Below are positions 27,584-64,000 of a stretch of 64,000 bases of DNA, in pieces. This DNA is from Malacoraja senta (lineage: Eukaryota). Under the pieces are notes generated by a model. That model had not been told where the DNA came from. It made no database searches and saw only the letters and a list, made by a program, of their open reading frames with translations. The stretch is from contig CM075993.1 of assembly GCA_038087875.1 (NCBI GenBank), positions 4,466,001 to 4,530,000 on the forward strand. Direction: 5' to 3'. The translations under genes and the position numbers were made by a program. How positions within the stretch are numbered: the first letter of the stretch is position 1; each line of letters opens with the position of its first letter.

Positions 27584-27611
27584 GACGTTTCGGGTCGAGA
27601 CCCTTCTTCAG
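27584..27611 (-). ncRNA. Candidate minimal hammerhead core, sense to the ETFA pre-mRNA (intron 9)
   Basis: Reverse complement is CTGAAGAAGGGTCTCGACCCGAAACGTC. Another intact minus-strand copy lies at 56334-56361. Confidence 0.55.
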
Positions 27612-28160: not shown

Positions 28161-28165
28161 GTTAA

Positions 28166-28630: not shown

Positions 28631-28921
28631 ACACTGCAAACAACCGTGTTTATAAAGGCAGGGGAAAAAAGGGTTTCTTGCTTAAACAGTAACGCTGATA
28701 AACCAAAAATCCGATTCTAAATCACACAGCTCGTGCATTGTCTCTCCCAGAGGTCTTTACACGGATATACAGAGAATGAAGGAATATGGATCACGTGCAA
28801 CCAGACATTAGGTTATCTCGGCATCATGTTTGGCATGGTCATAGTGGGCCAAAGGCCATGTTCCTATGCTGCACTGTTCTATGTGTCCATATATATACAT
28901 ATACACACACATATATAATAC

Positions 28922-29325
<404 letters not shown>

Positions 29326-32300
29326 ACTTTTTTCTCTCTCTCGTTTACTATATTGTTTAAAGTGTACTATGTTTACATATTCTGCTGTGCTGCTGCAAGT
29401 AAGAATTTCATTGTTCTATCTGGGACATATGATACTCTTGACTATGTTAAGTTCTTGTCAATTAAACCCAGACATAACGCTCAAATTTCCCCCCAGTTTT
29501 TCATAAAACAAGGAAGCAAAATCCAATTCAAATCGAATTCCAATTCCAAATCAGTCTGACGGACCGTTTCTGTAGGCTTGTATTCACTGGAGTTTAGAAG
29601 GATGAGGGGGAGATCTTATAGAAACATATAAAATTATAAAAGGACTGGACAAGCTAGATGCATGAAAAATGTTCCCAATGTTGGGCGAGTCCAGAACCAG
29701 GGGACACAGTCTTAAAATAAAGGGGAGGCTATTTAAGACTGAGGTGAGAAAAAACGTTTTCACTCAATGAGAGTTGTGAATTTGTGGAATTCCCTGCCAC
29801 AGAGGGCAGTGGAGGCCAAATCACTGGATGGATTTAAGAGAGAGTTAGATAGAGCTCTAGGGACTAGTGGAATCAAGGGATAAGGGGAGAAGGCAGGCAC
29901 GGGGTATTGATTTGGGACAATCAGCCATGGTCACAATGAATGGCGGTGCTGGCTCGAAGGGCCGAATGGCCTCCTCCTGCACCTATTTTCTATGTTTCTA
30001 AGATCCCGACACAAAACATCACGTATCGACATTCTTCAGAGAGGCTGCCTGGCCCACTGAGTTACTCTAGCATTTTGTGTCTTTCTTTGGTTAAAAACTC
30101 GCATCTGCAGCTCCTTGTTATTAGAGCAAACTCCAATTCACTTTGCAAGGTTATTGGCGAATTTGCTTCCACTACTTTCTTGCGGTGATTTTGTTACGGT
30201 TACATGACTGAAAAAAATCATTCCCCACCCAGTCCTGACTCCGTCAGTGTAAACCAGATCATCCAGTCTACGTTACGATACGATAAAACGTTATTCATCC
30301 CCGGAGAAAAATTGGTCTGCCGACAGTCACAACACACGAGGTGCACAAAAACTTGAAATTAAAAGTGAAAACAAAAAGAAAAAGACAAGCGACTGTTGGT
30401 TGGCTGCCGTGTGCACAGCGCCTTCGCCAGAGCAAATGAACAAACAAACCAACACAGACTTATCCCGTGGGCAGAGGATTCCAAACACCCCCCCCCCTCC
30501 CCCCACACACTGTACCAGAAGATAATTGGTATCAAATCTCATTGTACCTCTGTGCAATGACAATAAAAAATATTATTATTATTATATTATTATTGTAAAC
30601 TCCCTTGGAACAAACATTAAATTATACCAGAGCACTGCTCTGGTGCTCAATTCATCCATTTTACTGAAATTAAAATGAAGCATGGTGTATGCTTATGAAT
30701 AGACTATAAGTGATGTAAGCATCTGGCTGGAGACCATGATATGGAACAAAATGAAATTAGAATTGCCCAGCAATGATGAAAATTTTGTCCCAAACGATTT
30801 GTAAAAATGTATTTTTCCACCTTAAAAAGGGTCCAAAATAATCAAAGCAACACCGTGTTAAGTGCTTTTGTGCTTTTAAATTAAAAGTGTATCGTGGTGA
30901 AGAAGAAAATCCATTCAATTGCAAACAGTGCTGTATTATCTGACCATCAACTGCTGGGACTGCTTTTAACCATCACCAAACAACAAAAAATCTCATAGTA
31001 CACAATTCTTCCGTCTTGTACAAGTATTCACTTTGTCCTAGACTATGCGCTTGATGGTTTAGCGTTCTGCCTTCATCTGTCCCCAGACACACACCCTGAC
31101 CACTGCATTAAATATCGATCTTTCGCATTTGTTCAAAAAGCCTAAGTGAATTTGTCCATTGCAGGGAAGGGATTGCATTCTCGCGAATAGAGAAATAAAT
31201 GCCCGACAGCGAAAATATTCAGCAGGTCACGCAGCACGTGTGGAGAAATAAATAAAAACTAACATTTCAAGTTAACGATTTACGGTTTTGGTACGGTGGC
31301 GCAGAGTTGCTGCCTCACAGCACGAGACACCCGGGATCGACCCTGACTTCGGGTGCTGTCTGTGCGGAGTTTGCACATTCTCTTTGTGAATGCGTGGGTT
31401 TTCTCCGGGTGCTCCGGTTCTATTTTTTATACCTGATCAGGGTGGTGTTAGTAAATCTCAGCTTGTAGATACATAGATACATAGACAATAGGTGCAGGAG
31501 TAGGCCATTCGGCCCTTTGAGCCAGCACCGCCATTCAATGTGATCATGGCTGATCATCCCCAATCAGTACCCCGTTCCTGCCTTCTCCCTATACCCCTTG
31601 ATTCTGCTAGCCCGAAGAGCTCTATCTAACTCTCGTTTGAATGCATCCAGTGAATCCATCGGCCTTCTGAGGCAGAAAATTACAGAAATGCACAACTCTG
31701 TGTGAAAAAGGTTTTTCTCATCTCAAATGGCCTACCCCTTATTCTTAAACTGTGGGCCCGGTTCTGGACTCCCCCAACATCAGGAACATGTCTCCTGCAT
31801 CTAGCATGACCAATCCCTTAATATTTTTATATGTTTCTATAAGATAACCTCTGATCCTTCTAAATTCCAGTGGACACAAGCCCAGTCGCTCCGTTCTTTC
31901 ATCATATGAGCATGTGGAGCATGAGGAGATAAAATTGATTTCACCATCCGAGATTAGTGAGGGATTGGGATTGGCAGGGATGGGAAGGGAAGAACAAGAA
32001 CAAGCCAGAGGTGCACATGCACAAGGAAGGGGCGAAGTCAAGTTCTCCAACGACACTCTTGTCCCCTGGAAAAACTATCAGCAAAGTTGAAAAGCGTGTC
32101 CCAACAAGCAGTTGACGGTGTGATATTTATGGCTTTCTGCCACTTGTTTGCATGCAACTGTAAAGCCAACATTGCATGCAACACCAAATCATATAGACCC
32201 GGAGGCTCCATCTTCAGTTCAGTGGGACAGGCAGCATGTCTGGAGCAAAGGAATGGGTGATGTTTCGGGTCAAGACCCTTCTTCATCCAAATGTATTCGG

Positions 32301-33589: not shown

Positions 33590-33857
33590 AGAGAAAGCAC
33601 GAGAAGAGAGGGAGGGGGAGAGGGAGAGAGGGGGAGAGAGGGAGAGGGGATAGGGGAGAGGGAGAGTGGGAGAGAGGGAGAGAGAATGAGAGAGAGAATG
33701 AGAGAGAGGAAAAGAGAGAGGGAGGGAGAGGGAGGCAGGGGGAGAGGGAGGAAGAGGGAGGAAGAGAGAGGGGGAGGGGGCCGGCGATGGGGAAGGGGAG
33801 GGGGAAGGGTAGGGGGAGGGGGAGGAAGAGAGAGGGAGAGGGAGAGAATGGGAGGAT
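33590..33857. repeat. GA-rich low-complexity tract
   Basis: Directly visible purine tract. Confidence 0.95.
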
Positions 33858-35818
33858 GGGACAAAGACCCATCATTTATTTATTTGCCTCTGTACTCCAC
33901 AATTTGAGATTTGTAATAGAAAAAAATTACATGTGCTTAAAGTGCACATTGTCAGATTTTAATAAAGGCCATTTTATACATTTTGGTTTCAATGTATAAA
34001 ATGTATAAACTGCTTGTAGAAATTACAGCAGTGTTTATACATAGTGCCCCCATTTCAGGGCACCATGTTTGGGACACAGCAATGTCATGTAAATGTAAGT
34101 AGTCATGTTTAGTATTTTGTTGCATATCCTTTGCATGCAATGACTGCTTGAAGTCTGCGATTCATGGACATCACCAGTTGCTGGGTGTCTTCTCTGGTGA
34201 TGCTCAGCCAGGCCCTATTGCAGCCATCTTTAGCTTATGCTTATGCTTGTTTTGGGGGCTAGTCCCCTTCAGTTTTCTCTTCAGCATATAAAAGGCAAGC
34301 TCAATTGGGTTCAGATTGGGTGATAGACTTGGCCACTCGGGAATTTACATTTTTTTAGCTTTGAAAGACTCCTTTATTGCTTTAGCAGTATGTTTAGGAT
34401 CATTGTCTTGCTGTAGAATGAACCGCCGGCCAATGAGTTTTGAGGCATTTGTTTGAACTTGAACAGATAAGATGTGTCCATACACTTCAGAATTCATTAT
34501 GCTACTACCATCAGCAGTTGTATCATCAATGAAGATAAGTGAGTCAGTACCTTCAGAGCCATACATGCCCAGGCCATAACACCCCCACCACCGTGTTTCA
34601 CAGATGAGGTGGTATGCTTTGGATCTTGGGCAGTTCCTTCCCTCCTCCATACTTTGCTCTTGCCATCACTCTGATATAAGTTAATCTTCGTCTCATCTAT
34701 CCACAAGACTTCTTTCCAAAATTGTGGTTGCTCTTTTAAGTACTTCTTGGCAAACTGTAAACTGGCCATCCTATTTTTGCAGCTAATCAGTGGTTTGCAT
34801 CTTGCAGTGTAGCCTCTGTATTTCTGTTCATGAAGTCTTCTGTGGACAGTGGTCATTGACAAATCCACACCTGACTCCTGAAGACAATAGGTGCAGTAGG
34901 CCATTCGACTCTTCGAGCCAGCACCGCCGTTCAATGTGATCATGGCTGATCATCCCCAATCAGTACCCCGTTCCTGCCTTCTCCCCATATCCCCTATCTT
35001 TAAGAGCCCCATCTAGCTCTCTCTTGAAAGTATCCAGAGAACCGGCCTTCACCACCCTCCGAGGCAGAGAATTCCACAGACTTGCAACTCTTTGTGTGAA
35101 AAAGTGTTTCCTCATCTCCGTTCTAAATGACTTACCCCTTATTCTTAAACTGTGGCCCCTGCTTCTGGACCCCAACATTGGGAACATGTTTTCTGCCTCT
35201 AGCGTGTCCAAACCCTTTATAATCTTATATGTTTCAATAAGATACCCTCTCATCCTAAATTCCAGAGTATACAAGCCCAGCCACTCCATTCTCACAGCAT
35301 ATGACAGTCCCGCCACAGAATAAAACTGTTAGAGACATCAGCCAAACACTATGCTTACCAAAATCAACTGTTTGGAACATCATTAAGAAGAAAGAGAGCA
35401 CTGGTGAGCTTACTAATCGCAAAGGGACTGGCATAACTTTGGTCCTCATGTTGATAAACAGCAATAAAAGTTTCCAAAGGTGATGGGAAGACTGGAGGAA
35501 AGACTAGGTGCTGAGAGCTGTCTTATACCTGCATTAAGGAGGCATGTAAACACACCTGAGCAATTACAGATACCTGTGAAGCCATGAGTCTCAAACATTA
35601 TGGTGCCCTGAAATTGGGGGGGGGGGAGGCTATGTATAAATACAGCTGTTATTTCTACATGGTGAAACCAAAATGTATAAAAATGGCCTTTAATAAAATC
35701 TGACAATTTGTACTTTAACCACATGTGATTTTTTTCTATTACAAATCTCAAAATTGTGGAGAACAGAGGCAAATAAATAAATGATGGGTCTTTGTCCTAA
35801 ACATTATGGAGGGCACTG
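33858..35818 (-). mobile_element. Degenerate Tc1/mariner DNA transposon (DD34E-type), interrupted by a CR1 fragment
   Basis: Transposase remnants TTVHRRL..ARCKPLIS..NRMASLQFAK..VLWIDETKINL..VKHGGGGVMAWACM and FILQQDNDPKHTAK. Inverted repeats of about 200 bp; the right end is ...catTATGGAGGGCACTG followed by TA. The left tip is replaced by GA-rich sequence. Confidence 0.9.
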
Positions 35819-39905: not shown

Positions 39906-42900
39906 TCTTAAAAGCCACCACTGTGGGCTGAATGGACTATGCTAAATATTCTGAAGTTCAGAAGATTTTAAAAGGATTAAATGTTAATGTAGAACTTTCA
40001 TAGACCCTACTTAAACGGTCTTAGAATGAATAGAAGTCTGCTCAAATCTCTCAATACGCTACCAGCAGGGAGAGGAGCCCATGTCTAAGCATCCATACAC
40101 TGCCAACTTGAATCACCAGCATAAAATTCACAGCTAGACTGCATACACCAAATGCAGTCAGTTGTAAATATATCAGATTGGACGCTGCAATATAACAAAA
40201 TAATGCGTCAGAGTTAAAGCACAGCTAGCTCAGTTTCTGTTTAATTTTCTGTAAGAACAGCTTGAAATTAAAATAAGTTGCCAAATCCATTCTATGGGTG
40301 AACTCAACGTGTGAGCTACAGTCAGGGGGTTTTACCTCTCGTTGCAGATTGGTGAGGTGAGGAACAGAATCATATTCAATTTACACGCACAAATAAAGTC
40401 CATGCAGAGAACAACATTTGCAGCACTTATGCCTGCTTTGCGAGGCACTTCTGCGTTTAGAGGCTGTGTGTATTCTCAGGACACATTATTTATGTGCACT
40501 TATGGGTCTCACTAACCATTGAGAGCTTCAGCTGAGCCACAGAGAACAAATGCAATGTTCCTTAGTGAAACTCTGTAATGTCCGATACCCTTTAATGGAA
40601 CCTTAAGATGAAAGATTCTAAAAAAAAGTTCCATCAGAATTTTAAGCAATTAACCCTCTGAGTACATGTACCGTCTTACGAGTAAAGTCCACATTGAATA
40701 TTTATTTTAATTATCACAGTACTCTATGCTTAAAGATTACAAAATCCAATTCAAGTCAGTCCATTAATGTGAATGTCACAGAACCTTATACAATACAAAA
40801 CTGCTGAAATCTAACAGTACAATTTCCAACGTAAAATTCACTTTCACTATAGTTTAACAACTATTTATCTTTCACCATTTTAGGAAGTGCATTTAGAGCT
40901 CGATTGCAAAAATAAATTCCTCCATACTTCTTGTTTTATCGATCGCAGTACATTAAGCTGCTATGATTTTGTAAAACATTATTTTGAGCAAAATACTCAA
41001 AATTAATTTTATAAAAATGGCAAATAGGTCAGTCTCAGATTAAGCATGTAACCCACGAGCCCGCACACGCTCTGTCATCGCCCAAGTTCTCTTCTTTTGT
41101 TATAAGTACAATTTTAACCACATGTTATATGTTATAGAAGGAACTGCAGATGCTGGAAAATCGAAGGTAGACAAAAGTGCTGGAGAAACTCAGCGGGTGC
41201 AGCAGCATCTATGGAGCGAAGGAAATAGGCAACGTTTCGGGCCGAAACCCTTCTTCTTATGAAATTAGGAGACAGTTTTGACTTAGGAAAATAAGAAAAA
41301 ATACGCAAGTTTATGCACAGTGTTTTGTGGAATTAAAATTAAGGAAATTTCTTTTCCGAACCAGGCCATTATGCATTATGCATTATGCATTTTTTGCTCC
41401 AGATTCCAGGTGCTGGAATCTGGAGCAAAAAATTAAACTGCTGGAGGAAGTCAGTGGATCGAGCAGCATCTTTGGAAGGGAAGGGAGAGAATTGCCGTTT
41501 TTTGGATTCAGTTCCTGAATTATTCCCGATGTTGTGTCTCAGCTCGACACACTGGTAATTCCTGAGCACCTCCAGCAATTTGTTCTTTTGCTCCAACTTA
41601 AAGTTACAGTTTGACAAGATTAGCATCTCGCCAAACACAAGAAAGCGAAGAGAATTTTAAAGCAAGCACCTGACCTTGTTAGTATTCTTTGATGCACTGA
41701 TAGGATTGTGCCCAATTTCTGAATTAATGAAACTACTGCACTCTGTTTGTTGGAGTAAGACATGTTATCTTTGGGGATTTAAATTCCCAAATCAAAATAC
41801 CCAGGTGCATAAAGGCTCAATTTTCTCATTCGTTAAATGCTTTCTAACATGCACATTTATCATTAAATTAGCAAATGATGGCAGAATCCACACAACTAAT
41901 TAACTTTATGCCCCCAATACATATCCCTGTATTTGAATACAAAGGTGTAGGAAGGAACCACATATGCTGGTTTATACTGAAGATAGACAGGAAATGCTGG
42001 AGTAAGTCAGCGGCCTTTTCACGCCTCCAGTTTATTTCCCCACCCAACCCCCTCAACCTCCTCTACTTTCAGTCTGAAGAAGAGTTCCGACCCGAAACAT
42101 CACCTGCTCTTTTTCTCCAGAGATGCTGCCCGGTGGTAACCCGGTGAGTTATGCCAGTGTTTCGTGCCTATCTTTTGACTACAAAGGAATCTGTTTAGTT
42201 TATTCCCTTAAACATTATTGTTTTATCTGCGCTACTCGCAAATAAATTGACTGAATGCATAATGGCCTGGTTCGGAAACGAATGGAGGAGGGTGCAGAAA
42301 GTGACGGACATTGCCCAGTCCATCGCAGTTACTGACCTCGCCGCTGTCAAAGGAATCTACAATCACTCCTCAAGGAGGCAGCTGATAGCAGAGATCCACG
42401 CCACCCTAACTGCTTCTCTCGGGAAGATGGTATGGGAGCCTGAGAACTGTACATCTAGGTTCAAGAACAGCTTCTTCCTATCAACCATCATGTTTTTGGA
42501 GCAAGCTGCACAACTCTAACCACTATCTTACCTCAATTTTCAGAACCACTTAGTACTGTTTTGCTCCATTCACTTTGTTCTGTGCACTAAGATCTAATTT
42601 ACTTTGAATAACTGACAATTGATTGTATATTTTCTGTAGGTCGAATTGCAGTAAGAAAGAATATCACTGTTCCTGTTCACATCCAGGGCACGACACAAAT
42701 AAATGCTATAAATAATCTTTTTAAATGCACCTTTAACGTGAAGTGGAAATACAAGTTTAAAAAATCCACGATTTAAAATCCATGATTTCTATAGAGCTAA
42801 TGTTAGGAAATAAAATGTAAATCAGATGCTGGAAAAACCAGAGCGATGGTATTAACAAACAATAACAGAGAACTGAAGCAAATAACCCCATCTAAGAAAT

Positions 42901-43999: not shown

Positions 44000-45519
44000 T
44001 TACCTAGATTAATTCATGTTGGTGATATTTAGATATGTCTACTATAAATTTTGCTTTAAAATATGTAGCTCTGAAACACGCATTAACTACTAACTAATCA
44101 CGTTTGTTCATATGAATACACTAGTCAGTGATGAAGCAGAGGCAACTTAAGAAATCAAAAAGTTCAGATTACAAAAAACACATTGGCAATGTATAACTTA
44201 GAATGTATGAATATTATTGTCACCAATTTAATTGCAATTTATATTACAAACTATAAGTGTGTGCATTTTCCTTTAAAACATTTCCTTACGAATCTAAAGT
44301 GGCACACAACCCAAACAAAAATAAAACTGAATAGCTTAAACCCTAACGTCCTGGTGCAAGTTTCAAATCCAGACTTAAAGTTGTAACATAGAAATCATGA
44401 CAAGTTCATTCAATAACTTGGAATGAATTCATAGAACTCCAACATTCAAAATTAAATTATGACATAAGATGGATGGATATTCCTCTCCCAAACCTTTGAA
44501 TCTGTTGTGTTACCAAGCACTGAGCTCAAAGCAGAAGACCTGATGCAGAACTCTGTTAGCTTATTGCAGCAGGGAATGCCAGCAGCACATTTTTAAACAG
44601 AAGATAAACGCTAAATGCTGGAGTAACTCAGCAGGATAGGCAGCATCTCTGGAGAGCAGGAATGGGTGATGCTTCGGGTCGAGAGCCTTCTTCAGAGGGA
44701 CCCGAAACGTTACCCATTCCTTCTCTCCAGAGATGCTGCCTGTCCCGCTGAGTTACTCCAGCATCTTGTGTCTATCTTCGGTATAAACCAGCATCTGCAG
44801 TTCCTTCCTAACAGATGTGCTGAAATCAAAAGTTCAACCATTATTTTCCAACGGAAAATAGGGAGATAAAAACCGCACGATGTGCAGACAAAATCTAACC
44901 CTAAAGCCAAGTTGTAGCTTCAATCGTCACGTATTTGTTACAAATTCCCACGTGTACATTTACAATAGAAATTTGACACTCCAAATAGGCTCCCTCGCCG
45001 GAGATGAAACTGCAAAAACATCTGCTAATTTTGGGTACATAAATACACTCTGAAAAATTAAAATGGTAATCCACACTGTAAACAGCCTTTGTTGATAAGT
45101 GAAAATGTTGGCAAGAAATATGCGCAGAGAGAAGCCACACCATTTTCATGTCTAATAATTAAAAGTGGTGTACCTCACGGTACACGAGTTGACACGCCAA
45201 TGTCACAAAGGCTCAAGCTATGCTTACTGTCAGAGGGTGTTGCTGCAGGTCCCTTTTGCAGACCATGTCAGTACCGAAGCAGCAGCCCAAGTTTCACCAC
45301 GAGCTGGGAAATTATGCAACACACTTTTAAAAGATCTGCAAAATTACCTGATGTACTTTTCATCGAAATAACTGAGATCAGGAGGACATCACGCGAGGGA
45401 TTTTTGCCCCAATAAATGTTACAATGAAGCGATCCCCAATAATTTCAGAACAATATACTGGAGGAACAGTAAAATAAGGAGACAAATGACACTCATCTAC
45501 AAGAAAGAATAGGCTATTA

Positions 45520-45612
<93 letters not shown>

Positions 45613-47464
45613 TTAAAATAAAATAAATGATTTAAAATGAATTTACAGTGCATATAACCAATATAAACATTCAGCAAAATTTCATTTTAAATGTAATGGG
45701 CTAGATGTACAAAAAGTCCAGAAAGAATGCCTGAGAGATTCTATTATTTTCCTCAAGAAAAAAAGTTTTGTCTAATATATTTCAACAAATCATCACTGCT
45801 TAGTCGTGGAAACAAACGAACTGCAAATACTGGTTAATACACAAAAGAACAAAGTGCTGGAATAACTCAGCAGGTCAGGCAGCATCTCTGGAGAACATGG
45901 ATAGGTGATGTTTCAGGTTGAGACCCTACTTCAGACTGGAAGCACGAGTCTGAAGAAGGGTCTTATTCCGAAATGTCACCCATCCATGTTCTCCAGAGAT
46001 GCTGCCTGACCTGCTGAGTTACTCCAGCACATTGCGTCCATTCATCACCGTTTCTTTACATGCGGTTAAAGTTGGTCCATATATTGAGCTATTTAATTAG
46101 GTTTCACAACTTATCAGAGCAAATATATGACTAAGGTGGCTGTGCAGATGCCTAAGAAGGGTGTCTACCCGAAACGTCACCCATTCCTTCTCTCCAGAGA
46201 TGCTGCCTGTCCCGCTGAGTTACTCCAGCTTTTAGTGTCGATCTACATAATCATAAGGACTGACATTCCTTCATCATTGCCATATTGAATTCAAATAATC
46301 TGATACCCAGTGGCCAGGACCACAAATAACAGCCACAAAACTAGAGAGAAAAGAACAATGATTCACTTAGACCATTCAGGGAAAGGAAGCTGCTCTTTGC
46401 CTGGTTCAGCCTTTACAGCCTTTAGTAGCACAGCTGGTGGAGCTGCTGCCTCACGGAGACAGAGACCCAGCTTTGATCCTGACCTCTGTCTGTATGAACT
46501 TTGCATGTTCTCCCTGTGTCAGCATGAGTTTCCTCCGGGTGCTCTGGTTTTCTCCCACAAGCCAAAGATGTGTGGGTTTGTAGGTTAATCAGCCTCTGTA
46601 AATGCCTCCTAGCGTGTATAGAGTGGTTGCGAAAATGGGATACATAATACTCGTGTGAATGGGTGATCGATGGTAGGTGTGGAATTCAATGGGCCAAAGG
46701 GCCCATTTCCATGCTGTATCTCCAAACTAAATTAAACCCCAATACATGTGGCACAACAGAACTCAGAAGCACTGGTTTTACTGGTGACATAATACGTCGG
46801 ATTACAGGCTTACACGAACAAAAACATTGACATTTTTTAAAGCCATTAATTCCAACCTGTGTATTAATTTAACATTAAAAAACATACAAAATGCCAAGGA
46901 TACTCAAAAATCAGCCAGCAGGAAAGAGAAAGGTTAAGATGCTGGAACTTTACCTTTGTGTTTCTTGCTCCAAAGCTATACAAGATGTTGACAACATTCC
47001 CAAATTTATTACAAATTAACAACAAAACAGGATATGTTTCATTGCTCAATTATCCATATATTTTGCAGGAATAAATGAATGAAGGGAACCTACAAACTAT
47101 GGGTTACATTTAAATGCATATTTGATTAAATTTCATATTTTATTTGCTGAACTAATTTACTTTCCTAGTAACAGTATCCAAAACTATTGTCAAATCCAAA
47201 GCTATCCGACCTATGGATTTGGAATACAAGGGTCAGGTAAAAGAGGAGCAGGGAATTCGAAAAATGTACCAAAGACCAGCACCTGAGACAATATTTATAT
47301 AAAAGTGATATTTTAAGCATTTATGTGATGCAGATTTATTCATTATTCTTGTAACTGATGGAACACGGATTGCATTAAACGGCTAAAAGTTCCATTTGAG
47401 ATAATTCCCACCTCGAGTTGCGCATCTAATTACTAAAATATTAGACACTGCATCAACTACTCAC

Positions 47465-49539: not shown

Positions 49540-52060
49540 AAAATTTACTAACATGCAACAAATTCAACTATGGCTACTAAGCTCCAGGAGTGTGGCACTC
49601 AACACAAGCACGCACCTTCTCTCTCTCTTATAAAGGACATGTTCTTTTGATCCCTCCCACTCCAGCCCACCCGTTCGTAGCAGGGCCACCAATCAATGAA
49701 AACACAACCTCTTCACCCAATTGGAAAAAAAGGATGACTATCAAAGATCAGTGGCTGGAGGAACTCAGTGAATCAGGCAGCATCTGTGGAGGGACATGCA
49801 TGGACAATGTTTTGGGTCAGGACCTTTCTTCGTATACCATGAGCTTGACCTGCGGAGTTCCTCCAGCACTTTCAAAATTCCAGCATCTGCAGTTTCTTGC
49901 ATCTCCTTCAAAAAACCCTTCATTTCACTAGTCTCTGTTATTATGTCCCTCTCCATCGCTCACAATTTGTTGTCTTCTGGTGATATTCCAGTTGCACATA
50001 CATTCATTTTACAACAATTACAGTGCCTCAATCCAAAAACTATTATTGCAAACTAGATTTATAGATATGAATCGAGGTGGCACGGTGCCTCCTCACAGGG
50101 TTAGAGTCCAGGTTTCCAAAGGAGAGTATATTACAAAACTATGAGAAAAAGCACTGAGCTGATGACCTGATAACGAAAAGCCAAACCCATTAACATCTAT
50201 GCCAAAAGCTCTATTACGCCCAGCCACCCATCCTTCTCAGTCTGAAGAAAGATCCCGACCCAAAACATCACCAGTCCATGTTCTCCAGGGATGCTGCCCA
50301 ACCCGCTGAGTTACTCCAGCATTTTGTGTCCACCCTTCTCAATTGTCCAACTATGCACAAACTCCATTCCTATCCCAACCTTTAAGTATCTGATGGGGCT
50401 GCTCACAGAATCCACGACATCATCACCAAGGTTCAGTTCTTCGTTGCTCAAGGTTCAGTTTTTCCACCATGTACGTCACTAAACATGAAGCTCTATTAAA
50501 TTGAGACTCTTTCACCCATACCCTAAGGTACAACAAATCTGCCTAACCTGACTCTCTCAACTACATCCCATGTTGTCCCCCAACTTAATCAACTTCAACT
50601 CCACGTTCGCTAATCCATTCATCTTTGAATGTCCGCATGTTACATTCTTACTCCACTCACCCCAGCAATCTCCTTTAAGCTTGCATCCTAACTAAAATTT
50701 GTAGCGGGATCTTGATCGGTTGGGCAGGTAGGCTGAGGAATGGTTGATGGAGTTTAATACAGTGAAGTGCAAGGTGTTTCACTTTAGGAAGTCTAACATG
50801 GGCAGGACCTACCCAGTGAATGGAAGGGCTCTGGCGAGTGTTTTAGACCAGAGGTATCTAAGAGTGCAGGTATATAGTTAGATAAGGTGGTCAAGATAGC
50901 TTTTGGCACATTGGCTTTCATCAGTCAAAGAGTATTGGGTACAGATGTTGGGAGGTCATGTTGTGTTTCATTTTGGTCATCGTGTTATAGGGAAAATGTC
51001 GTTAAGCTGGAAAGGGTGCAGAGAAGATTTACGAGGATGTTTCCAGGACTCGAGGGCCTGAGTTAAAGGGAGAGGTTGAGCAGGCTAGGACTTAATTCCT
51101 TGGAGCGCAGGAGGAAGAGGTGATCTTATAGAGGTGTTTCAAGATCATGAGAGGAACAGATGGAGTAAATGCACAGTCTTTTACCCAGAGTAGGGGAATC
51201 AAGAACCAGAAGACATAGGTTTAAGGTGAGGGGGGAAGATTTAATAGGAAACTGAGGAGCAACTTTTTTTTTTTTTTACACAAATGGTGGTAGGTATATG
51301 GAACGAGCTGCCGGAAGAGATAGTTGAGCCAGTTTGGACAGGTACATGGTTTAGAGGGTTATGTGCCAAACTCAGGCAGGTGGGACAAGTGCAGATGGGG
51401 CATGTTGATTGATGTAGGCAAGTTGGGCTGAAGGAATTATTTCCAGTCTGCATGACTCTATGACTAACTCTGTCTGCCTTTTTTTTGTTGTAAAATCTGC
51501 CCACGAGCCACTTTCACACACCTATCATCCCTGGAACCATCTTCAGGTTATTCACCCAAATATCCTGAAGCTGCCGCCCTTTCTGTATCCCTTCTCATGC
51601 TCAAGCGCCTACTCAAAATCCTACAACCTTGGCTTCAGCTCTGTCTCCTAAAATCGCAGTTCTTGATCTGGCATCCCCAAATACTTCCGGCTGATAGAAT
51701 GCCTTTGAATAGTCACTGCATTCGGGTGCAAGTTGTTGCAGCAAATGAGATATGTGACACATCTGCCTGTTTTGAACAATGGAAGTAACCACTGACAACA
51801 GCTTGCGTGTTCTATACAGGGCATCAGAAGGGAAATAAAAGATTTAGTGCAGCAGATGGAAGAAATGTAACAATAAAACCTTAAGTGGACTCTTCTTTCG
51901 TTCCAAGCCAGATTCTAGTGAATTATAGAAAAGAATACAAATGGCTCAAAGAGTACTTTAAGAAACAAGTTAGGCTTACATTCAACGAAATGGCAAATTA
52001 AGTCAAGCCACTAATTTTCTTATACCATCAATCTAGCGTCAGGCTCCATCTTATTCCTAC

Positions 52061-52160: not shown

Positions 52161-52347
52161 CTGCAAACAAATGGAAAGCCACAAATAAACTATTTTCTAC
52201 AAAGTGTGAATGTTTACATATTTTTTTTAAAGAAGTAACACCAATTTGTTATTTTCACGTTGCTTTATGTTCAGCTACTTTGATTGGATTCACCAGCATT
52301 ATAATTTCCCAGGAATCTAGGCGATGAAAGAACCAGATACTAATGCA

Positions 52348-52557
52348 TTTAAGAAGGAACTGCAGATGCTGGAAAATCGAAGGTAGACAAAAGTGCTGGA
52401 GAAACTCAGCGGGTGCAGCAGCATCTATGGAGCGAAGGAAATAGGCAAAGTTTTGGGCCAAGTCTGAAGAAGGGTTTCGGCCCGAAACGTTCCCTATTTC
52501 CTTCGCTCCTTAGTTGCTGCTGCACCCGCTGAGTTTCTCCAGCACTTTTGACTACCT
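52348..52557. mobile_element. Palindromic PLE-terminus-derived element
   Basis: Inverted arms, hammerhead core at 52464, 14-bp TSD cagatac(t/g)aatgca. Confidence 0.8.
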
Positions 52558-52869
52558 CAGATACGAATGCAAGTCTCGAACAATCTGAGGATAACAATGA
52601 GGATCTGATTCAAGGAAAGGACGACAGCTGGAGGAACTTTGCGGCTCAGGCAGCCTCCGTGGAGGAAAATGGACAGTCAAATATTTCAGGTCGAGACCCT
52701 TCATCTAGACCGGTGGAGGTAGCCCGTACAGTATAAAGAGGTGAGGGGAAGGATGGGGCAAGAGCTAGCGACTGAGAGGTGGATACAGGTGAGGAGGGAT
52801 TGATTGACAGATAATGTTTGAGGAAACAAGAGGAACACTTCACTTGGGTATACTATCATCCAACGATAT

Positions 52870-53353: not shown

Positions 53354-53832
53354 ATAGATACATAGATACATAGAAAATAGGTGCAGGAGTAGGCCATTCG
53401 GCCCTTCGAGCCTGCACCGCCATTCAATATGATCATGGCTGATCATCCAACTCAGTATCCCGTACCTGCCTTCTCTCCATACCCCCTGATCCCCTTAGCC
53501 ACAAGGGCCACATCTAACTCCCTCTTAAATATAGCCAATGAACTGGCCTCAACTACCCTCTGTGGCAGAGAGTTCCAGAGATTCACCACTCTCTGTGTGA
53601 AAACGTTTTTCCTCATCTCGGTCTTAAAGGATTTCCCCCTTATCCTTAAGCTGTGACCCCTTGTCCTGGACTTCCCCAACGTCGGGAACAATTTTCCTGC
53701 ATCTAGCCTGTCCAACCCCATAAGAATTTTGTACGTTTCTATAAGATCCCCTCTCAATCTCCTAAATTCTAGCGAGTATAAGCCAAGTCTATCCAGTCTT
53801 TCTTCATATGAAAGTCCTGACATCCCAGGAAT
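53354..53832 (-). mobile_element. Young CR1/HER1-like LINE 3' fragment
   Basis: Uninterrupted frame IPGMSGLSYEERLDRLGLYSLEFRRLRGDLIETYKI...FTQRVVNLWNSLPQ...GIRGYGEKAGTGY*, followed by a (CTATGTAT)-type tail. Confidence 0.92.
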
Positions 53833-53867: not shown

Positions 53868-54245
53868 TAGACATAAAATGCTGGAGTAACTCAGCGGGGC
53901 AGGCAGCATCAGGGGAGAGAAGGAATGGGTGACGTTTCGGGTCGAGACATTTCTTCAGACTGAGAATCAGGGGAGAGGGAGGCACAGAGATAAGGAAGTG
54001 AAAGGTATGAAAAACAAGACATCAAAAGGGATGCAGCTCAAGGAAAATGTTGAATACATCAGTGTTAGATAGGAGTAGGTTACAACAAAGCAAACAGAAG
54101 TAAAAATGTAATCAGGGGGACAGTTAGACTGGTTGGAGAATTGGCAATGGAGAGGGATGGAGAGAGAGGGAAAGCAAGGGTTACTTGAAGTTAGAGAAGT
54201 CAATATTCATACCGCTGGGGTGTAACCTGCCCAAGCTAAATATCC
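53868..54245 (-). mobile_element. Penelope-like element 3' end
   Basis: Minus strand reads IFSLGRLHPSGMNIDFSNFK*, followed by a pyrimidine-rich UTR and a degenerate hammerhead-like unit at about 53931-53958. Confidence 0.8.
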
Positions 54246-55139
54246 ACCGCTTGTAAGTTGTTTTAAATTATCCCTTTCACTTTCCATAGCTGCTTTTTGA
54301 AACTCTAAAGAAGGGTTGGTGTATGAACATCCAAAATGATACCACAAACATTTGATATTTTTATTTACATTAACTATATCCACAAAAGTTGGCACATTCT
54401 TTTTTTTTCCCCTGATGATCATTTGGTTCTTTTTTTAATAATTCTCAGAGAAAGTATGTTCTGTTCCCCTTCGCTTCTACGCGTTAAAGTAGGAATGTCA
54501 GTCAAAAAGCAACAAATAGTGGGTAAAGTCAGATGATTACAATCTAGCTGGGAATCACAGAAAATAGTAGAATTCAGCCCAGAGAAAAGAGCAGAACTAA
54601 TTAAATAAAACAGAACTTAAGATATAAAATGTACTGTTTAATGCACAGTAATTCAATTGAGATGCCATTAAGCCATTGACCTGACAGCTCCAAAACAATA
54701 TGAAGGATTGCAAGGGAAGCTGCAGGAAGTGTTATTGCAATTTGGGTCTCTGTTGAAGGACTAGAGAGCATTATCAACCACTTACAGCATTAAACTTCTC
54801 GTCAAAGCGCAAGTGGACACTTTCCAGCAGATTCTGTTTCAAATATTTTCAGAATCACAATGAAACTCCAACAAGGTTGTTATTTGGACCATCTCCCCTG
54901 TGCTAGCTGTTCGATAGAGCTCCATAAATAATCCTATTCCTCTGCTCTTTACCTTTTGTCCTTTTTATTCCACCCTTTCAGGCATTACATAAACGGCTCT
55001 CTTGAAATCACTATTGAATCCACTTCGATCGCCCTCTCAAGCTGTGCATTCCGAATCACTTATAAATCGTGTTAATCAAATTCAAACCTGGTGTCCTATC
55101 TAACTCTGTAATGGGCACATGGCACTGGGTAAAACTTAC

Positions 55140-55848: not shown

Positions 55849-56801
55849 CAGTGCCCTCCATAATGTTTGGGGCAAAGACCCGTCATTTATTTATTTGCCT
55901 CTATACTCTACAATTTGAGATTTGTAATAGAAAAAAAAAATCACATGTGGTTTGTGCACATTGGCAGATTTTAATAAAGGCCATTTTTATACATTTTGGT
56001 TTCACTATGTAGAAATTACAGCAGTGTTGATACATAGTCCCTCCATTTCAGGGCACCATGTTTGGGACACAGCAATGTCATGTAAATGAAAGTAGTCATG
56101 TTTAGTATTTTGTTACATATCCTTTGACATACAATGACTGCTTGAAGTCTGCGATTCACGGATATCACCAGTTGCTGGGTGTCTTCTCTGGTGATGCTGT
56201 CAGGCCTGTATCACAGCCATCTTTAGCTTATGTGTTAAAGAAGGAACTGCAGATGCTGGAAAATCGAAGGTACACAAAAATGCTGGAGAAACTCAGCGGG
56301 TGCAGCAGCATCTATGGAGCGAAGGAAATAGGCAACGTTTCGGGCCGAAACCCTTCTTCAGACGAAGGGTTCTGAAGAAGGGTCTCGGCCCGAAACGTTG
56401 CCTATTTCCTTCGCTCCATAGATGCTGCTGCACCCGCTGCGTTTCTCCAGCATTTTTGTGTACCATCTTTAGCTTATGCTTGTTTTGGGGGCTATTCCCC
56501 TTCAGTTTTCTCTTCAGCATATAAAAGGCATGCTCAGTTGGGTTCAGATCGGGTGATTGACTTGGCCACAAGAATTGACAATTTTTTTGCTTTGAAAAAC
56601 TCCTTTGGTGCTTTAGCAGAATGTTTGGGATCATTGTCTTGCTGTAGAATGAACAACCGGCCAATTGAGTTTTGAGGCATTTGTTTGAACTTGAGCAGAT
56701 AGGATGTGTCTATACCTTTCACAATTCATTATGCTACTGCCATCAGCAGTTGTATCATCAATGAAGACAAGTCTTTGACCCAAACATTATGGAGGACACT
56801 G
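55849..56801 (-). mobile_element. Internally deleted copy of the same Tc1 family
   Basis: TA|CAGTGCCCTCCATAATGTTTGGG ... CCCAAACATTATGGAGGACACTG|TA. Retains QQDNDPKH and WPSQSPDLNPTEH fragments. Confidence 0.92.
56233..56462. mobile_element. Palindromic PLE-terminus-derived element inserted in Tc1
   Basis: Two inverted pLTR units, each with a hammerhead core. 16-bp TSD ccatctttagcttatg at 56217-56232 and 56463-56478. Confidence 0.85.
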
Positions 56802-56899: not shown

Positions 56900-57710
56900 T
56901 TTCAAGAAATGTAGCGGGCGAAGACTGGTAATGACGGACCTGTGTGCCGATTGTCAGCAGTGGGGAAGTTATTGGAAAAAAATCTGAGGGACAGAATTAA
57001 TGATTACGTGGAGAGACTAGCCAGGATTAGCTTTGCCAAGATCAGATTTTAGTCTAATTGAATGTTTTGAGTACATTGATGAGGGCAATTCTGTGGAATT
57101 CTCTGTCTCAGAGGGCGGTGGAGGCCGGTTCTCTGGATACTTTCAAGAGAGAGCCAGATAGGGCTCTTATAGATAGCGGAGTCAGGGGATATGGGGAGAA
57201 GGCAGGAATGGGGTACTGATTGGGGATGATCAGCCATGATCACGTTGAATGGCGGTGCTGGCTCGAAGGGCCGAATGGCCTACTCCTGCACCTGTTGTCT
57301 ATTGGCAGTTTACACTGGACTTCGCTGAGGCGTTCAACAAAGTACCAAAGGGAGACTAGTCCTAAAGATTAAGGCCTGGGGGATCCAGGGCAAGTTGACA
57401 AACTGGATCTAAAAATGGCTGAGCAAGAGGAGACACGAGGGTTATGGTAGAAGAGTATTTTGGGGATTGGATGCCAGTGTCTAGTGGTTTTCCACATGGA
57501 TCAGTGCTGTTTACAACATACGTGATTGATTTGTATATGGACGCAGGTGACATGATCAGCAAGTTCCAAGTTGATACAAAGTATGGTGGAGTTGTTGTCA
57601 GTGTGGATGGTGGTCTTAGGCAACAGGGTGATATCGGTGTGATAGTGAAATGGGCTGAAACATGGCAGTTGGAGTTTAGTCCAAATAAATACGAGGTGAT
57701 GCACTCTGCA
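56900..57710 (+). mobile_element. Degenerate CR1 reverse-transcriptase fragment with a younger CR1 tail nested at about 57087-57305
   Basis: DW.PVSSGFPHGSVL..YVIDL...ISKFQVDTKYGGVV...WAETWQLEFSPNKYEVMH (decayed FADD region). Confidence 0.8.
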
Positions 57711-58562: not shown

Positions 58563-61559
58563 CTACAAAAGACAATAATCTATTACAACTGTGCTACCAG
58601 CAAAACCAACCCTGATCACCTATTCCTAAATACTCTTAAGATAATGGTGAGTCACCTTCTTGAATTTCCACACTACTTTTTGGTACAGTTCTAGATGTTT
58701 GACTACACGATGAAGGAATGTAATACATGCCAAGACTTTAGACTTTTAGACTTTAGAGATAAAGCGTGAAAACGGGCCCTTCGGCCCATCGAGTCCACGC
58801 CAACCAGTGATCACCACATACTATCCTACACACTAGGGACAATTTAAAATTTGCAGATGCCAATTACAAACCTGCACATCTTCGGAGTGTGGGAGGAAAC
58901 CGGAGTAGCCGGAGAAAACACACAGTCACAGGGAGAACTCCATACAGACAGCACCCGGAGTCAGGATTGAACCCAGGTCTCTGGCACTGTAAGGCAGCAG
59001 CCTACCGCTGCCCACTGTGCCGCATCAAGTCTGGATGGTTTGTGACCATGAGGCAACCTCAATTAATGGTAACCCCATGCACCTCCTGTACATCCTCCAG
59101 CTTGCTAGAGATTGTAGACTTCAGAGTTCCTGCACTGTGATATGCAGTTGGTGTCATTTCTGGCATTTTTATGATTATTACTGTGCACCCCAACTTCTGA
59201 CATGATCAATGATGAATGACATTCATGAATGTCAAGACAGTCTGAAGATGGGTTTCGGCCCGAAATGTTGCCTATTTCCTTCGCTCCATAGATGCTGTTG
59301 CACCCGCTGAGTTTCCCCAGCACTTTTGTCTACCTTCGATTTCCAGCATCTGCAGTTCCTTCTTAAACACATTCATGAATCAACCAGGGTTGTTTGCGAA
59401 CAGTACATTGCTTCTGCAAAAGCTCTGGGGCTGAAATAATGAACCTCCAACAGCCACAAACACTTTAATAAATCCACGCAAAGAGGTGATTTCCCTTTTA
59501 TTTCAATTGACGTTAACGTGACAGGTAACCAAACTTGGTCAATGCTGCTTTGATATCACTCCTTTCAAACCTCTGGAATAAGGCCTTTCAGTGCATAGTA
59601 TAATTTGACAGGATAGCGTATAAACAACACTTTTCACTATATCTTGCACATGTGGCAATAATGTACCAAATACCAATGCCAAGGTTGGTACAAAGGTTGG
59701 AATGACGTCTGGGTTCAATGGTCACAGTGAAACTTAAATTATCAGTTTCTCAAAGCTGAGGTTTGAAGATGTTAGTGTATTTTCCATAAAAGATACAATA
59801 AAAAAAGTATCATTTTTTGTAAGTGAAAAATATTGGTCAGGACACTACAAAAAAAATCTTCTATTCTTAACAAAATAGTGCCATGGAATATTTTCCAGCT
59901 ATTTTGAAGGACCTGTGCGACATCCCATACAAATTGCAGGTATTCAAGGTCAGAATATGAGTAAACATTAGCTCTCATTGTCAACATCAAGTTTCAGATG
60001 TTGTTGAGACAGTAGTTTATGGCATTGTCCACACAAAGTCTTAGTATGTTAATCCACAAGAACATTCAGGATAAATGATTAAATGTTCATACTAAATCAT
60101 TACTGTAGTCGGAAATATGTGTAATTAATTACTTCAGCGTTTCCCGATAATTAACTAATGAGCAATCCTTCCCAAATCAAAGACGGTGTACAATTACCCC
60201 ACGACATTTAATTGTGCAAACAGAACTGCAAGTCAAATTTCACCCAATACAGCGACAACAGTTCAAATGATAGAATTGATTGTGGGGCTCCGCAGCTCAT
60301 TATTATCACACTACAGCACACAAAAGCTTTACAAGGATGTTGCCAGGACTCGAGGGTCTGAGCTATAGAGAGAGGTTGAGTAGGCTGGGACTCTATTCCT
60401 TGGAGCATAAGAGGGTGAGGGGTGATCTTGTAGAGGTGTATAAAATCATGAGAGGAACAGATCGGGTAGATGCGCAGAGTCTTTTGCCTAGAGTAGGTTT
60501 AAGGTGAAGGCCAATTAACCTCCAAACCTGCACGTTTTTTGGCCTGTGGGAGAAAACCGAAGATCTCGGAGAAAACCCACACAGGATACGGAGAGAACAT
60601 ACAAACTCCGTGCAGACAAGCACCCACAGTCTGGATCGAACTCGGGTCTCTGGCGCTATAAGGCAGCAGCTCTACCACTGTGCCACCCGTTGGGTTGACA
60701 GTGAAGCAGCTATGGGAAGATGGGTGACAGAGAGGGGATAGCAGGATAGCTTACAAAATTGCAGCAGTTTTCAATATGGTTTATGGCGTTACTCTTAAAA
60801 TAACAGCAAGTTCATTCAACTCTGTTTTCAGAACATGCCATGTCATTATTTAACAAGCGACCCCTAGACTTCCAGCCCAGGACCAAAAATAATGTTCCAC
60901 TTTACTCATGTTACATGAACAAAAATAAGGGTTATCTCATATTTACATTGATGCCTATAATTATAAATAGTATAAACTCTGATCATCTATCTACATGACC
61001 CATGTTTTATTCAGTTCAGTTATATGGTTTACAATTGCGCCATTTGTTTTTCTTCTAACGCATCTGCCCTTGGGAACATTGACATGTCACCAGACAGGGC
61101 TTTCCATTTTGATTTGATGTTCTTAAATCCGAGGAGCAGAATTGGGCTATTCGGCCCAACAAATCTACTCCACCATTCAATCATGGCTGATCTATTCTTT
61201 CCCTTTCTACCCCATTCTCCTGCCTTCGCCCTATGACCCATGACAACTGTACTAGAATCAAGAATCTGTCAAACTCTGCCTTAAAAATATTGACTTGGCC
61301 TTCACTTCCATCTGTGGCAATGAATTCCACAGATTCACCACCCTCTGACTAAATAAATTCCATCTCACCTTCTCTAAAGGTACATCCTTTTATTCTAAGG
61401 CTATGGCCTCTGGTCCTAGACTCTCCCACTAGTGGAAACATCCTCTCCACATCCACTCTATCCAGGCCTTTCACTATTCGGTGTTTCAATAATATCCCCC
61501 CCGATCCTTTGAAACTCCAGTGAGTGCAGGCTCAGTGCCTTCAATAGAAAAATTGAGGG

Positions 61560-61850
61560 ATTGAGGGCCTGGAAAACTGACGTCATTGAAGAGACGAAGG
61601 GCGTGTGAAAATGTCTTGGACATAGGTTGGGAGGGATTGAACCGGGGGAGGGGGATAGGATGGAGTCGAGGAATGTGAATGACAGGAGCAGGCGGAAACA
61701 ATGGGTCTGCCAGGGCAGTTCTGTTTATGGATTTTGAGAAGGTAAAACCGGACTGAGCAGGGCTGGGGAACGATAAGGTTGGAAGCTGTAGAGGCCAGAC
61801 AGCCAGAAGTGATAAAATCAGAGATAGTCTGTGAAACGATGTCCTGGTGG
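61560..61850 (-). mobile_element. Degenerate Penelope-like reverse transcriptase fragment
   Basis: Minus strand reads HQDIVSQTISDFITSG..ASNLIVPQP..RFYLL-KIHKQNCPGRPIVSACSC, then TFSHALRLFNDVSFPGP after a frameshift. An inverted pLTR unit abuts it at 61869. Confidence 0.8.
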
Positions 61851-62072
61851 TGTCATGGGCCATGGAGTCTGAAGAAGGGTCTCGACCCAAAACATCAAGC
61901 CATTCCTTCTCCCCTGAGATGCACACTGTTCGCTCAGTTACCCAGTATTTTGCATCTATCCACAATCTAAATAGGAAGCAGACTAGACTATTGTTATGGA
62001 GACACGTAAAACTGACGTGTCAGGGACAGTTTCTTCCCAGCTGTTACCAAGGTCCCTTCTTCAGACCGCAAC

Positions 62073-62370
62073 TTCCCTCCACAGATGCTGCCTGACCCGC
62101 TGTCTATCTTTATTGAGGATCACACCTTGACCTCTAGCAGCCAGTCCTGGCACAAAATGTCATCTATATATATTCCCGCCACAGATGCTGCCTGACCCAC
62201 TGTCTATTTTAACGAGTGTTACACCATACCCACAACAGCCAGTCCTGGCCCAAATGTAGTCCATATATTTCCCTCCACACAGATGCTGCTTATCTTTGAC
62301 AACATGTCCACCAGCAGCCAGTCCTGGCCCACAATATCTATATATATTTCCCTCCACCCGATGCTGCTGT
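62073..62370. repeat. Diverged tandem repeat of about 80-100 bp, 3-4 units
   Basis: Recurring ccacagatgctgc...cagccagtcctggc.caaa...atatattt.cc. Confidence 0.75.
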
Positions 62371-62498: not shown

Positions 62499-62698
62499 NN
62501 NNNNNNNNNNNNNNNNNNNNNNNNNNNNNNNNNNNNNNNNNNNNNNNNNNNNNNNNNNNNNNNNNNNNNNNNNNNNNNNNNNNNNNNNNNNNNNNNNNNN
62601 NNNNNNNNNNNNNNNNNNNNNNNNNNNNNNNNNNNNNNNNNNNNNNNNNNNNNNNNNNNNNNNNNNNNNNNNNNNNNNNNNNNNNNNNNNNNNNNNNN
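62499..62698. other. Assembly gap (200 N), probable location of ETFA exon 1
   Basis: Run of N. The left flank is CpG-rich and no exon-1 candidate was seen between 58563 and 62498. Confidence 0.9.
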
Positions 62699-63447
62699 TA
62701 AGCGGAAACCGGGTTAACTGGATATTTAAACAAAATGTTACATTTCTTAATCTAATAAAGAAAACGAGTTCCTGTTTTTTTTTAATCATTCCACACAACC
62801 GCAACGGAAGGTCACTTGTTTATTGAAAGAGATTTTTTTTTTAAAAGGGGAGAGAAAACTAGACGGAGACACATTGGGCCCAAGTAGAAAGTCAATAATA
62901 TTTCCATCGCTGCGGACTGTGTAGAGACAAGAGTGGCAGGGCCTCGGGGTGAGGGGACAAAAAACAGGAGGGGGGAGGGAGAATTTCTGTGAGTCCATCA
63001 CAGATTTCTTTACAGTCCTTGGATTGCGTGTAGTAATCCCAACACCTTGCGGCGGAGATTACACCGGTGCGTGCGGTTAGTTTAGAATGAATATCAGGGA
63101 AATGCAAGCAATCTTTAGCAGAGCTTGTTCATTTATTAGCGGGTGGAAAAGGGCATAAACAAAGATGTCGTTCTAGTTAAGACTTGAACGAAGTACTCTG
63201 CTGAAATAACACTTGATTCGTTGGGTCCCTGCTGCAAATATATATTCTGTTATTTTAAATATACGAGCAATGGTGCATCTGGGGGCAAATGAGGCAGCAA
63301 TTTAGCGAGCGGCAGAGATTCAGCCAGGAATCAGCTTTACCGGAGCTAATACAGTAACAGGAAATATCTCGGGGACTCAAAGCCCCGTGAACAGCAGTAT
63401 GTTGCAAATATGTGATATGATCAGATGGAGCCCGGTTGAAAGGCGTT

Positions 63448-63616
63448 CTCGCTCGCTCTCTCCCTCTCCCTCTCTCCCTCTCTCCTCTCCCTCTCCACCC
63501 CCCCCCTCTCTCTCGCTCTCTCCCTCTCCCTCTCTCCCTCCCTCTCTCCTCTCCCTCTCCACCCCCCCCCTCTCTCTCGCTCTCTCCCTCTCCCTCTCAC
63601 TCCCCGTCTCCTCCCT

Positions 63617-63682
<66 letters not shown>
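63448..63682. repeat. CT-rich tract ending in (CT)n
   Basis: Directly visible pyrimidine tract. Confidence 0.95.
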
Positions 63683-63683
<1 letters not shown>

Positions 63684-64000
63684 TTATAATCCATTAAAAA
63701 GGAGCGGCGTGCGTTTAGTGCAGGAGAGGTGGTTTTATTGGGAATAAACAGTTTATTTAGACGGGCGTCACACAGAGGAGAAAGGGGCCACGATTGTTAT
63801 CCTCCATTCAACACGCTGTATTATGTAACACCATGCTTCCCTATCAGTCTGGGGAGCGGTTATCCTGGAATAGCTGCTAAATATATTTTCAGGGGTTTTA
63901 TGAAATAATATTCAGCGCCTGTGAGTTGGGCTCTGTTTATATTGCAACAATAACAAGTCTGTCACTGCAGTGTTGCTGGTGACCTCTATGTATCTAGAAT

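Follow-up and report, generated by a model that had tools for sequence, protein, structure and literature searches.

Head-to-head 3' ends of a Penelope-like element as short palindromic inserts: probable single integration products

Results

A palindromic insert inside a Tc1-type transposon

In the 64-kb stretch of DNA analysed here (the window), a Tc1-type transposon is interrupted by a 230-bp insert at 56233-56462, which lies between exact 16-bp direct repeats. Its minus-strand arm is 131 nt long and its plus-strand arm 92 nt, with a junction of 7 nt between them. The insert thus contains two head-to-head copies of a ~130-nt unit with a predicted minimal hammerhead motif, and a ~36-nt tail is present on one arm only. 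The predicted fold of the whole insert is a hairpin of -184 kcal/mol. The features of the locus are as follows (PLE, Penelope-like element); statements on cited papers, here and below, refer to the available parts of their text.

55868-56772, minus strand: host Tc1-type DNA transposon copy (aligned extent), broken by the insert; 87-89% identity to the copy near 33857-34540
56217-56232, plus strand: left copy of the 16-bp target-site duplication; identical to 56463-56478, while the other Tc1 copy has the 16-mer once
56233-56363, minus strand: long arm, PLE 3' terminal unit with tail
56233-56268, minus strand: ~36-nt tail, long arm only; fits the 30-40 bp PLE tail of PMC8557442
56334-56361, minus strand: predicted hammerhead motif (minimal, type I) in the long arm, with the core, a helix II of 4 bp and stem III as a palindromic stub
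56364-56370, plus strand: 7-nt junction insert, identical to unit positions 8-14 and apparently templated; unique in the window
56371-56462, plus strand: short arm, tail-less unit; hammerhead motif at 56372-56399; 97.8% identity to the long arm over 92 columns
56463-56478, plus strand: right target-site duplication, exact repeat of 56217-56232
34224-34239, plus strand: paralogous empty site in the second Tc1 copy; 16-mer present once

The host copy matched DDE_3 with E=2e-4, below the curated cut-off, and the second Tc1 copy matched HTH_Tnp_Tc3_2 with E=4e-9. A preliminary description of this DNA had reported 16-bp repeats around the insert and an empty site near 34224. Both were recovered, the 16-mer being exact at 56217 and 56463 and occurring once at 34224-34239. 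Note that in the second Tc1 copy the 16-mer is followed by a separate 6-bp micro-duplication of that copy's own, and the empty site is therefore paralogous and not perfectly clean.

In a predicted fold of the single tailed unit (56231-56363, minus strand), the first ~12 nt pair with the end of the tail (z=-1.9). This pairing was not predicted for the copy at 23951.

Head-to-head pairs and their target-site duplications

To count the units we used BLAST with four queries taken from the window; all counts given here come from this one 64-kb window. We obtained 52 unit matches, half of them (26) arranged in 13 head-to-head pairs and the other 26 single. The pairs measure 145-268 bp, in agreement with the preliminary description of ORF-less inverted-unit elements of 150-270 bp. 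The pairs other than the insert in the Tc1 copy, together with one single unit in a duplication, are (strand given for the single unit only):

13749-13923: head-to-head pair in a 16-bp duplication, exact at 13749/13908; both arms share a variant absent from all other arms
24857-25042: head-to-head pair in a 19-bp duplication, exact at 24857/25024
52334-52571: head-to-head pair in a 14-bp duplication with 1 mismatch (13 of 14 at 52334/52558)
9181-9475: head-to-head pair with a further arm in tandem; 14-bp duplication (2 mismatches); absent from the preliminary description
27507-27748: older head-to-head pair; ~14-bp duplication with a 1-nt gap
41932-42187: older head-to-head pair; 14-bp duplication with 1 mismatch
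4865-5074: older pair, both arms tailed; no duplication found
16462-16666: older pair, both arms tailed; no convincing duplication
22346-22501: older pair; no duplication found
44595-44813: older pair; no convincing duplication
45806-46043: older pair; repeat of 7-9 bp at most
49754-49898: decayed older pair; no duplication found
59219-59380, plus strand: single tailed unit (59237-59371) in a 12-bp duplication, exact at 59219/59369

Arms lying next to each other are oriented 5'-to-5' in 13 of 15 cases (p=9e-7 against an expectation of 25%). A tandem, head-to-tail arrangement was found in 1 of the 15 adjacent pairs, and one neighbouring pair is tail-to-tail (13649/13763). A further head-to-head junction, with a very short left arm (~16 nt), is present at 62050-62109 and lies outside the 13 pairs.

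We compared the flanks of each pair in a controlled test. Five of the 13 pairs have a flanking repeat of at least 14 bp with at most 1 mismatch. None of 156 mismatched combinations of left and right flanks reached 14 bp (longest 13), and 0.8% of 1500 random sites had such a repeat. Gapped alignment of the nine remaining or doubtful pairs, done without a control of its own, added two duplications (9195 and 27524), giving 7 of 13 pairs with duplications of ~14-19 bp, namely all five young pairs and two of the eight older ones. Neither the flank comparison nor the gapped alignment gave a convincing duplication for the other six, all of which are older. Taking units and pairs together, the duplications vary in length from ~11 to 19 bp. 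They overlap the element ends by ~2-6 nt, and the exact element boundaries are ambiguous for this reason. All four further direct repeats of the preliminary description are present; those at 24857, 13749 and 59219 are exact, whereas the one at 52334/52558 has a mismatch that had not been reported.

The window contains other repeats. A 25-bp unit is repeated in tandem at 26704-27092 and a 10-bp unit near 27974-28173. Extended tracts of CA/GT type or rich in GA are present near 28850-29400, 33600-33870 and 63440-63700. A LINE-like family has left many 3' fragments (311-730, 2872-3119, 12510-12978, 23497-23917, 29582-30002, 31472-31909, 34865-35204, 53358-53826 and 57060-57311), several of which abut PLE units. 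A run of N at ~62500-62700 marks an assembly gap.

Identification of the unit as a Penelope-like 3' end

Two copies in the window connect the unit to coding sequence:

19113-19499, plus strand: 5'-truncated PLE copy of the subfamily of the unit in the Tc1 copy; endonuclease C-terminus at 19115-19285, pyrimidine-rich 3' UTR and tail-less unit; 11-12-bp duplication at 19101/19499
53868-54264, minus strand: older-subfamily copy, also tied to an endonuclease C-terminal fragment (tblastn E=8e-6)

The unit in the first copy (at 19404) is ~96% identical to the arm in the Tc1 transposon, and is preceded by a pyrimidine-rich stretch and, further upstream, by the end of an ORF of 57 codons. The 57-aa peptide has 86% identity to a little-skate protein and 378 relatives at E<=0.001. 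Judging from the little-skate match, the DNA probably comes from a skate or ray. Of eight long relatives scanned, six match GIY-YIG and two match reverse transcriptase (RT) plus GIY-YIG (P0090 and P0145). A Pfam search with the 57-aa fragment alone gave no match; the fragment corresponds to the C-terminus of proteins that match GIY-YIG, and RT followed up by GIY-YIG in one protein, as in two of the relatives, is PLE architecture. An RT domain in P0002 was set aside as evidence for RT linkage, since by eye it resembles a LINE-type piece in a chimeric gene model. We further compared 19090-19520 with contigs of 4 of 24 sequencing runs, from three organisms (31,738-56,783 contigs per run). In all four runs, contigs with loose ends carry the ORF on beyond 19112 on the upstream side and add the tail beyond 19493 on the downstream side. 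Thus, the unit is the 3' end of a PLE and is linked to a GIY-YIG endonuclease ORF.

By eye, a Cys-rich linker is present in relatives P0003, P0090, P0110 and P0145. Such a linker is assigned to Neptune and Nematis (PMC8557442), and the parent PLE probably belongs to the Neptune clade, judging from these protein sequences. The 64-kb window holds no full-length PLE, and motif scans of viral and metagenome contigs gave no matches. A decayed internal fragment of a PLE RT region was found on the minus strand at 61697-61837 (tblastn E=2.7e-4; within 61570-61971). A plus-strand terminal unit at 61866 abuts this fragment head-to-head, the inversion partner in this case being internal coding sequence. 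The coding-linked copy itself sits in a small element with ~50-bp inverted ends (18971-19568), apparently a true MITE-like DNA element.

These data bear on whether the palindromes are MITEs moved by a cut-and-paste transposase, as their short, non-coding, palindromic and high-copy nature might suggest. The duplications vary from ~11 to 19 bp without a shared sequence, the two ends of an insert are not symmetric, and a GIY-YIG ORF is linked to the unit. The varying duplication length and the asymmetry of the ends refute MITE identity, and we give this reading practically no credence. The view of the preliminary description that the hairpins are retroposed PLE termini with variable duplications was borne out.

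The unit carries a minimal hammerhead motif

A hammerhead-core pattern matched 10 times in the window, compared to 0.07 matches expected by chance. Helix II (4 bp) was 90.5% paired across 21 distinct copies; none of its four pairs was altered on both sides in these copies, and hence no compensatory change was seen. Helix I has only ~2 bp (by eye). Helix II formed in one of five minimum free energy folds. Stem III is only a palindromic stub that has no loop, a feature shared with the minimal hammerheads described in PMC4209133. A search of Rfam returned no hammerhead match, only generic hairpin matches below the gathering score. On the basis of its sequence, the element carries a minimal type I hammerhead motif, a putative ribozyme.

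No arm 3' end and only ~2 of 52 5' ends (4865 and 18107) coincide with the predicted cleavage site. Hammerhead cleavage as the source of the ends was rejected for this reason, and the position of the ends away from this site suggests that the templates were uncleaved RNA.

At 19410-19447 the contigs of all four runs (2-3 contigs each, with several insert variants) contain a recurrent joint that goes back ~34 nt, corresponding to a direct duplication of the hammerhead core segment. This duplication could permit dimeric hammerhead folding in cis.

Junctions differ between pairs

The preliminary description had raised the possibility of a new system, in which the whole palindrome would be copied as one piece and spread by itself, as a non-autonomous retroelement with a ribozyme. 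Such an element would leave behind many palindromes without an ORF and with clean duplications, as are present here. In the window, however, all 13 junctions differ in the end points of the arms and in the intervening letters, and the junction of the insert in the Tc1 copy occurs once, with no second occurrence in the window at up to 3 mismatches. A family making up 33% of the palindromes would appear twice with a probability of 0.96, and one with a 10% share with a probability of only 0.38; a sample of 13 junctions thus makes unlikely only a family of about a third or more of the palindromes. Among the joints listed from the contigs of the four runs (15 of 26 joints and 12 of 174 insert-bearing joints), no strand-change joint was seen. 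Since contigs break at repeats, these joints neither support nor refute shared junctions.

One further copy gives the only hint of a shared origin of junctions. Just upstream of the tail-less unit in the copy at 13633-13742, short antisense-derived pieces (13633-13648) resemble the insert at the junction in the Tc1 copy (minus strand). The likeness requires 2 indels within a stretch of 14 nt, although the neighbouring arm is free of differences over 94 nt. A convergent templated insertion fits this combination better and is probably its origin. In addition, the ends lie off the predicted cleavage site, the units are not head-to-tail as in retrozymes, and a hairpin of -184 kcal/mol would presumably be a poor RT template. 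The self-propagating family was not borne out, and we consider copying of the whole palindrome as a unit very unlikely.

Arm ends cluster at defined positions

The 3' ends of the arms cluster near unit positions 92-98 and 122-133, corresponding to the absence or presence of a tail of ~36-38 nt. Exactly one arm is tailed in 11 of the 13 pairs, both in two and neither in none (p=0.011 against the 50% maximum for independent choice, in a post hoc comparison). The arm asymmetry noted in the preliminary description therefore holds for these 11 pairs, whereas the two with both arms tailed (4865 and 16467) had gone unreported. In three of the 11 one-tailed pairs the tail-less arm ends off the usual position (at 57, 82 and 103).

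The palindromes might also have formed only after insertion, either because two elements happened to land side by side or because a single unit underwent recombination or a template switch during replication; the arm ends bear on this possibility. PLEs may home to their own pLTR (PMC11167929), and the tail-to-tail neighbours at 13649/13763 would be compatible with independent landings. Against such an origin, one duplication brackets both arms, 13 of 15 orientations are head-to-head, and tail-less arms end at 92-98, the same positions as single copies. We regard it as highly improbable.

At the other end of the unit, 11 of 13 pairs have both 5' ends inside the self-complementary hammerhead segment (positions 1-46), and two pairs have arm overlaps of 11-15 nt in helix II. 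Among all 52 arms, 27 reach position 7 or less, and only 5 of these 27 continue into the pyrimidine-rich UTR; of the eight young-subfamily arms among the 27, seven stop between about -3 and +5. The 5' ends thus pile up at the 5' edge of the hammerhead, at an initiator-like sequence, the upstream context of which we take to fit the vertebrate initiator consensus. The preliminary description had offered extreme 5' truncation with an inverted end as its other reading. Truncation and inversion stand, and are a published PLE pattern, but 'extreme random truncation' is not quite right because the 5' ends pile up at one place. The same context is also similar to a splice acceptor; spliced RNA as the cause of the pile-up was disfavoured, as the upstream sequences lack a common exon and several copies retain 1-4 nt of the would-be intron. 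Note that UTR upstream of the arms was recognised from its composition and from all-against-all BLAST, an approach that may miss divergent old UTRs.

The pile-up is also what would be expected if the single unit of ~95 or 133 nt were a SINE-like, non-autonomous parasite of the PLE, with an internal promoter at the initiator-like 5' edge. It would be copied in trans by the PLE protein, and palindromes would be built at insertion from a short RNA. In Drosophila, Penelope contains an internal promoter (PMC2377424), pLTR sequences can suffice to support integration in trans (PMC3846280), and non-autonomous PLE derivatives have been described (PMC8557442; bioRxiv 10.64898/2026.07.22.740005). However, the short units are ~96% identical to the coding-linked copy at 19404, without a separate lineage. 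An RT stop would yield an equal pile-up, as would transcription of a full element that starts within its upstream pLTR, and the low number of arms with UTR may in part reflect divergent old UTRs that escaped the comparison. We judge this reading unlikely. A more elaborate form of it is improbable too, though it deserves to be stated: the ~133-nt hammerhead-plus-tail unit might now be a free SINE-like element, one RNA of which is copied twice by a PLE protein dimer, from two start sites at two nicks. Each landing would then give a fresh palindrome, and a minority might re-amplify.

We also asked how similar partner arms are to each other. After one pair with fewer than 25 shared columns was dropped, the partner was strictly the closest sequence for 5 of 24 arms, tied for 3 and not the best match for 16. 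Two-copy variants fell in partner arms in 2 of 25 cases, compared to 0.25 expected. A template common to both arms is only weakly indicated by these figures, and gene conversion could mimic one.

A model of palindrome formation at integration

In our interpretation, each hairpin is very probably one integration product of a protein-coding, endonuclease-bearing PLE, assembled at insertion and not copied as a unit. The GIY-YIG endonuclease would nick both strands ~11-19 nt apart, and the 3' ends at both nicks would prime reverse transcription on uncleaved RNA. One cDNA would usually be primed at a distal start site, ~+133 from the 5' edge of the hammerhead, giving rise to the tail, and the other at a proximal site at ~+95. 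Both cDNAs would stop inside the hammerhead segment or at its 5' edge, and the self-complementarity of this segment may allow their joining by microhomology or short templated fill-in. The short, fixed length would best be explained if cDNA synthesis ran off a transcript whose 5' end lies close to the initiator-like sequence that immediately precedes the hammerhead core.

The 5'-to-5' arrangement of the arms is the geometry expected if the 3' end of each duplication primed a cDNA. For Poseidon PAc in vitro, both strands are cut and extended and a dimer is predicted; two internal RT start sites delimit the tail, and hammerhead cleavage is dispensable (PMC11167929). Self-priming on an antisense template has been proposed for the head-to-head pattern (PMC3846280). 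We lean towards priming at both nicks, because the tail-less ends are precise and common to single copies and because two pairs have both arms tailed; the window data lean this way without separating the two routes firmly. Within the integration reading, priming at both nicks is somewhat favoured at a little above even chances, fold-back self-priming is a possible but distinctly weaker candidate, and other routes together take up a small remainder.

Discussion

As objects, the inserts are minimal PLE insertions with inverted ends, that is, ordinary PLE debris. Their value lies in displaying both ends, the duplication and the junction within ~250 bp and at high density, which makes them data on the mechanism of PLE integration. 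Tabulated across a whole genome, such inserts could discriminate between priming at both nicks and fold-back synthesis, and could show whether the 5' ends represent transcription starts. In annotation, these hairpins belong under PLE, not under MITEs or microRNA precursors.

In L1 twin priming, an inverted 5' segment is made at insertion within one duplication, and the two segments copy different parts of the RNA. In the inserts described here, by contrast, the arms overlap and copy the same part of the RNA.

The non-LTR retrozymes of animals (Cervera and de la Pena 2020, PMC7229834; Li, Clavereau and Pollet 2026 preprint) resemble the inserts in being non-coding, with a type I hammerhead and an origin from PLE pLTRs. 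They differ, in the available descriptions, in being head-to-tail tandem repeats that are processed by cleavage to monomers and circles, whereas the inserts are head-to-head with ends off the predicted cleavage site. Membership in this group fails on the tandem arrangement, found in 1 of 15 adjacent pairs.

The candidate motif agrees with the minimal type I hammerheads of metazoan PLEs (Cervera and de la Pena 2014, PMC4209133) in its conserved core, the bulged base before helix II, the G-C closing pair and the palindromic 15.2-16.2 without a loop 3. Those hammerheads, too, are mostly solo or in opposite-strand pairs, 100-700 bp apart, which were attributed to truncated PLEs. Compared to the Schistosoma hammerheads of the same paper, with 7-8 and 4-5 bp, the predicted helices II and I are shorter (4 and ~2 bp).

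PAc, a Poseidon element of Anolis (Frangieh et al. 2024, PMC11167929), shares with the inserts the two tail-bounding RT start sites downstream of the hammerhead, and with the proposed model the cutting and extension of both strands and the use of uncleaved RNA. It belongs to another clade and host, and the available account reconstructs no head-to-head products for PAc. There is an overlap of a few nucleotides between target and element here, whereas PAc is described as initiating without homology.

The closest likeness in structure is to known insertions of endonuclease-bearing (EN+) PLEs (Arkhipova et al. 2013, PMC3846280; Craig et al. 2021, PMC8557442), with a head-to-head inverted 5'-truncated copy, a 30-40-bp tail at one end, a variable duplication and a GIY-YIG endonuclease upstream of the terminal unit. 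Inverted 5'-truncated copies with a one-sided 30-40-bp tail are characteristic of PLEs (PMC8557442; likewise PMC8969392). Examples include an inverted pLTR with a 31-bp tail and 8-10-bp duplications (PMC3846280) and Drosophila Penelope with a 34-37-bp terminal repeat and inverted ends (PMC2377424); PMC8557442 treats the way in which PLEs come by such ends and tails as an unsettled question. We found no description of such minimal palindromes in cartilaginous fish in the literature searched, the scope of which did not extend to Repbase, Dfam and most subscription journals. Relative to the EN+ PLE insertions in these accounts, both arms here comprise the last 50-133 nt of the element with no ORF between them, the duplications are longer (~11-19 compared to 8-10 bp), and the pairs reach a density of 13 in 64 kb.
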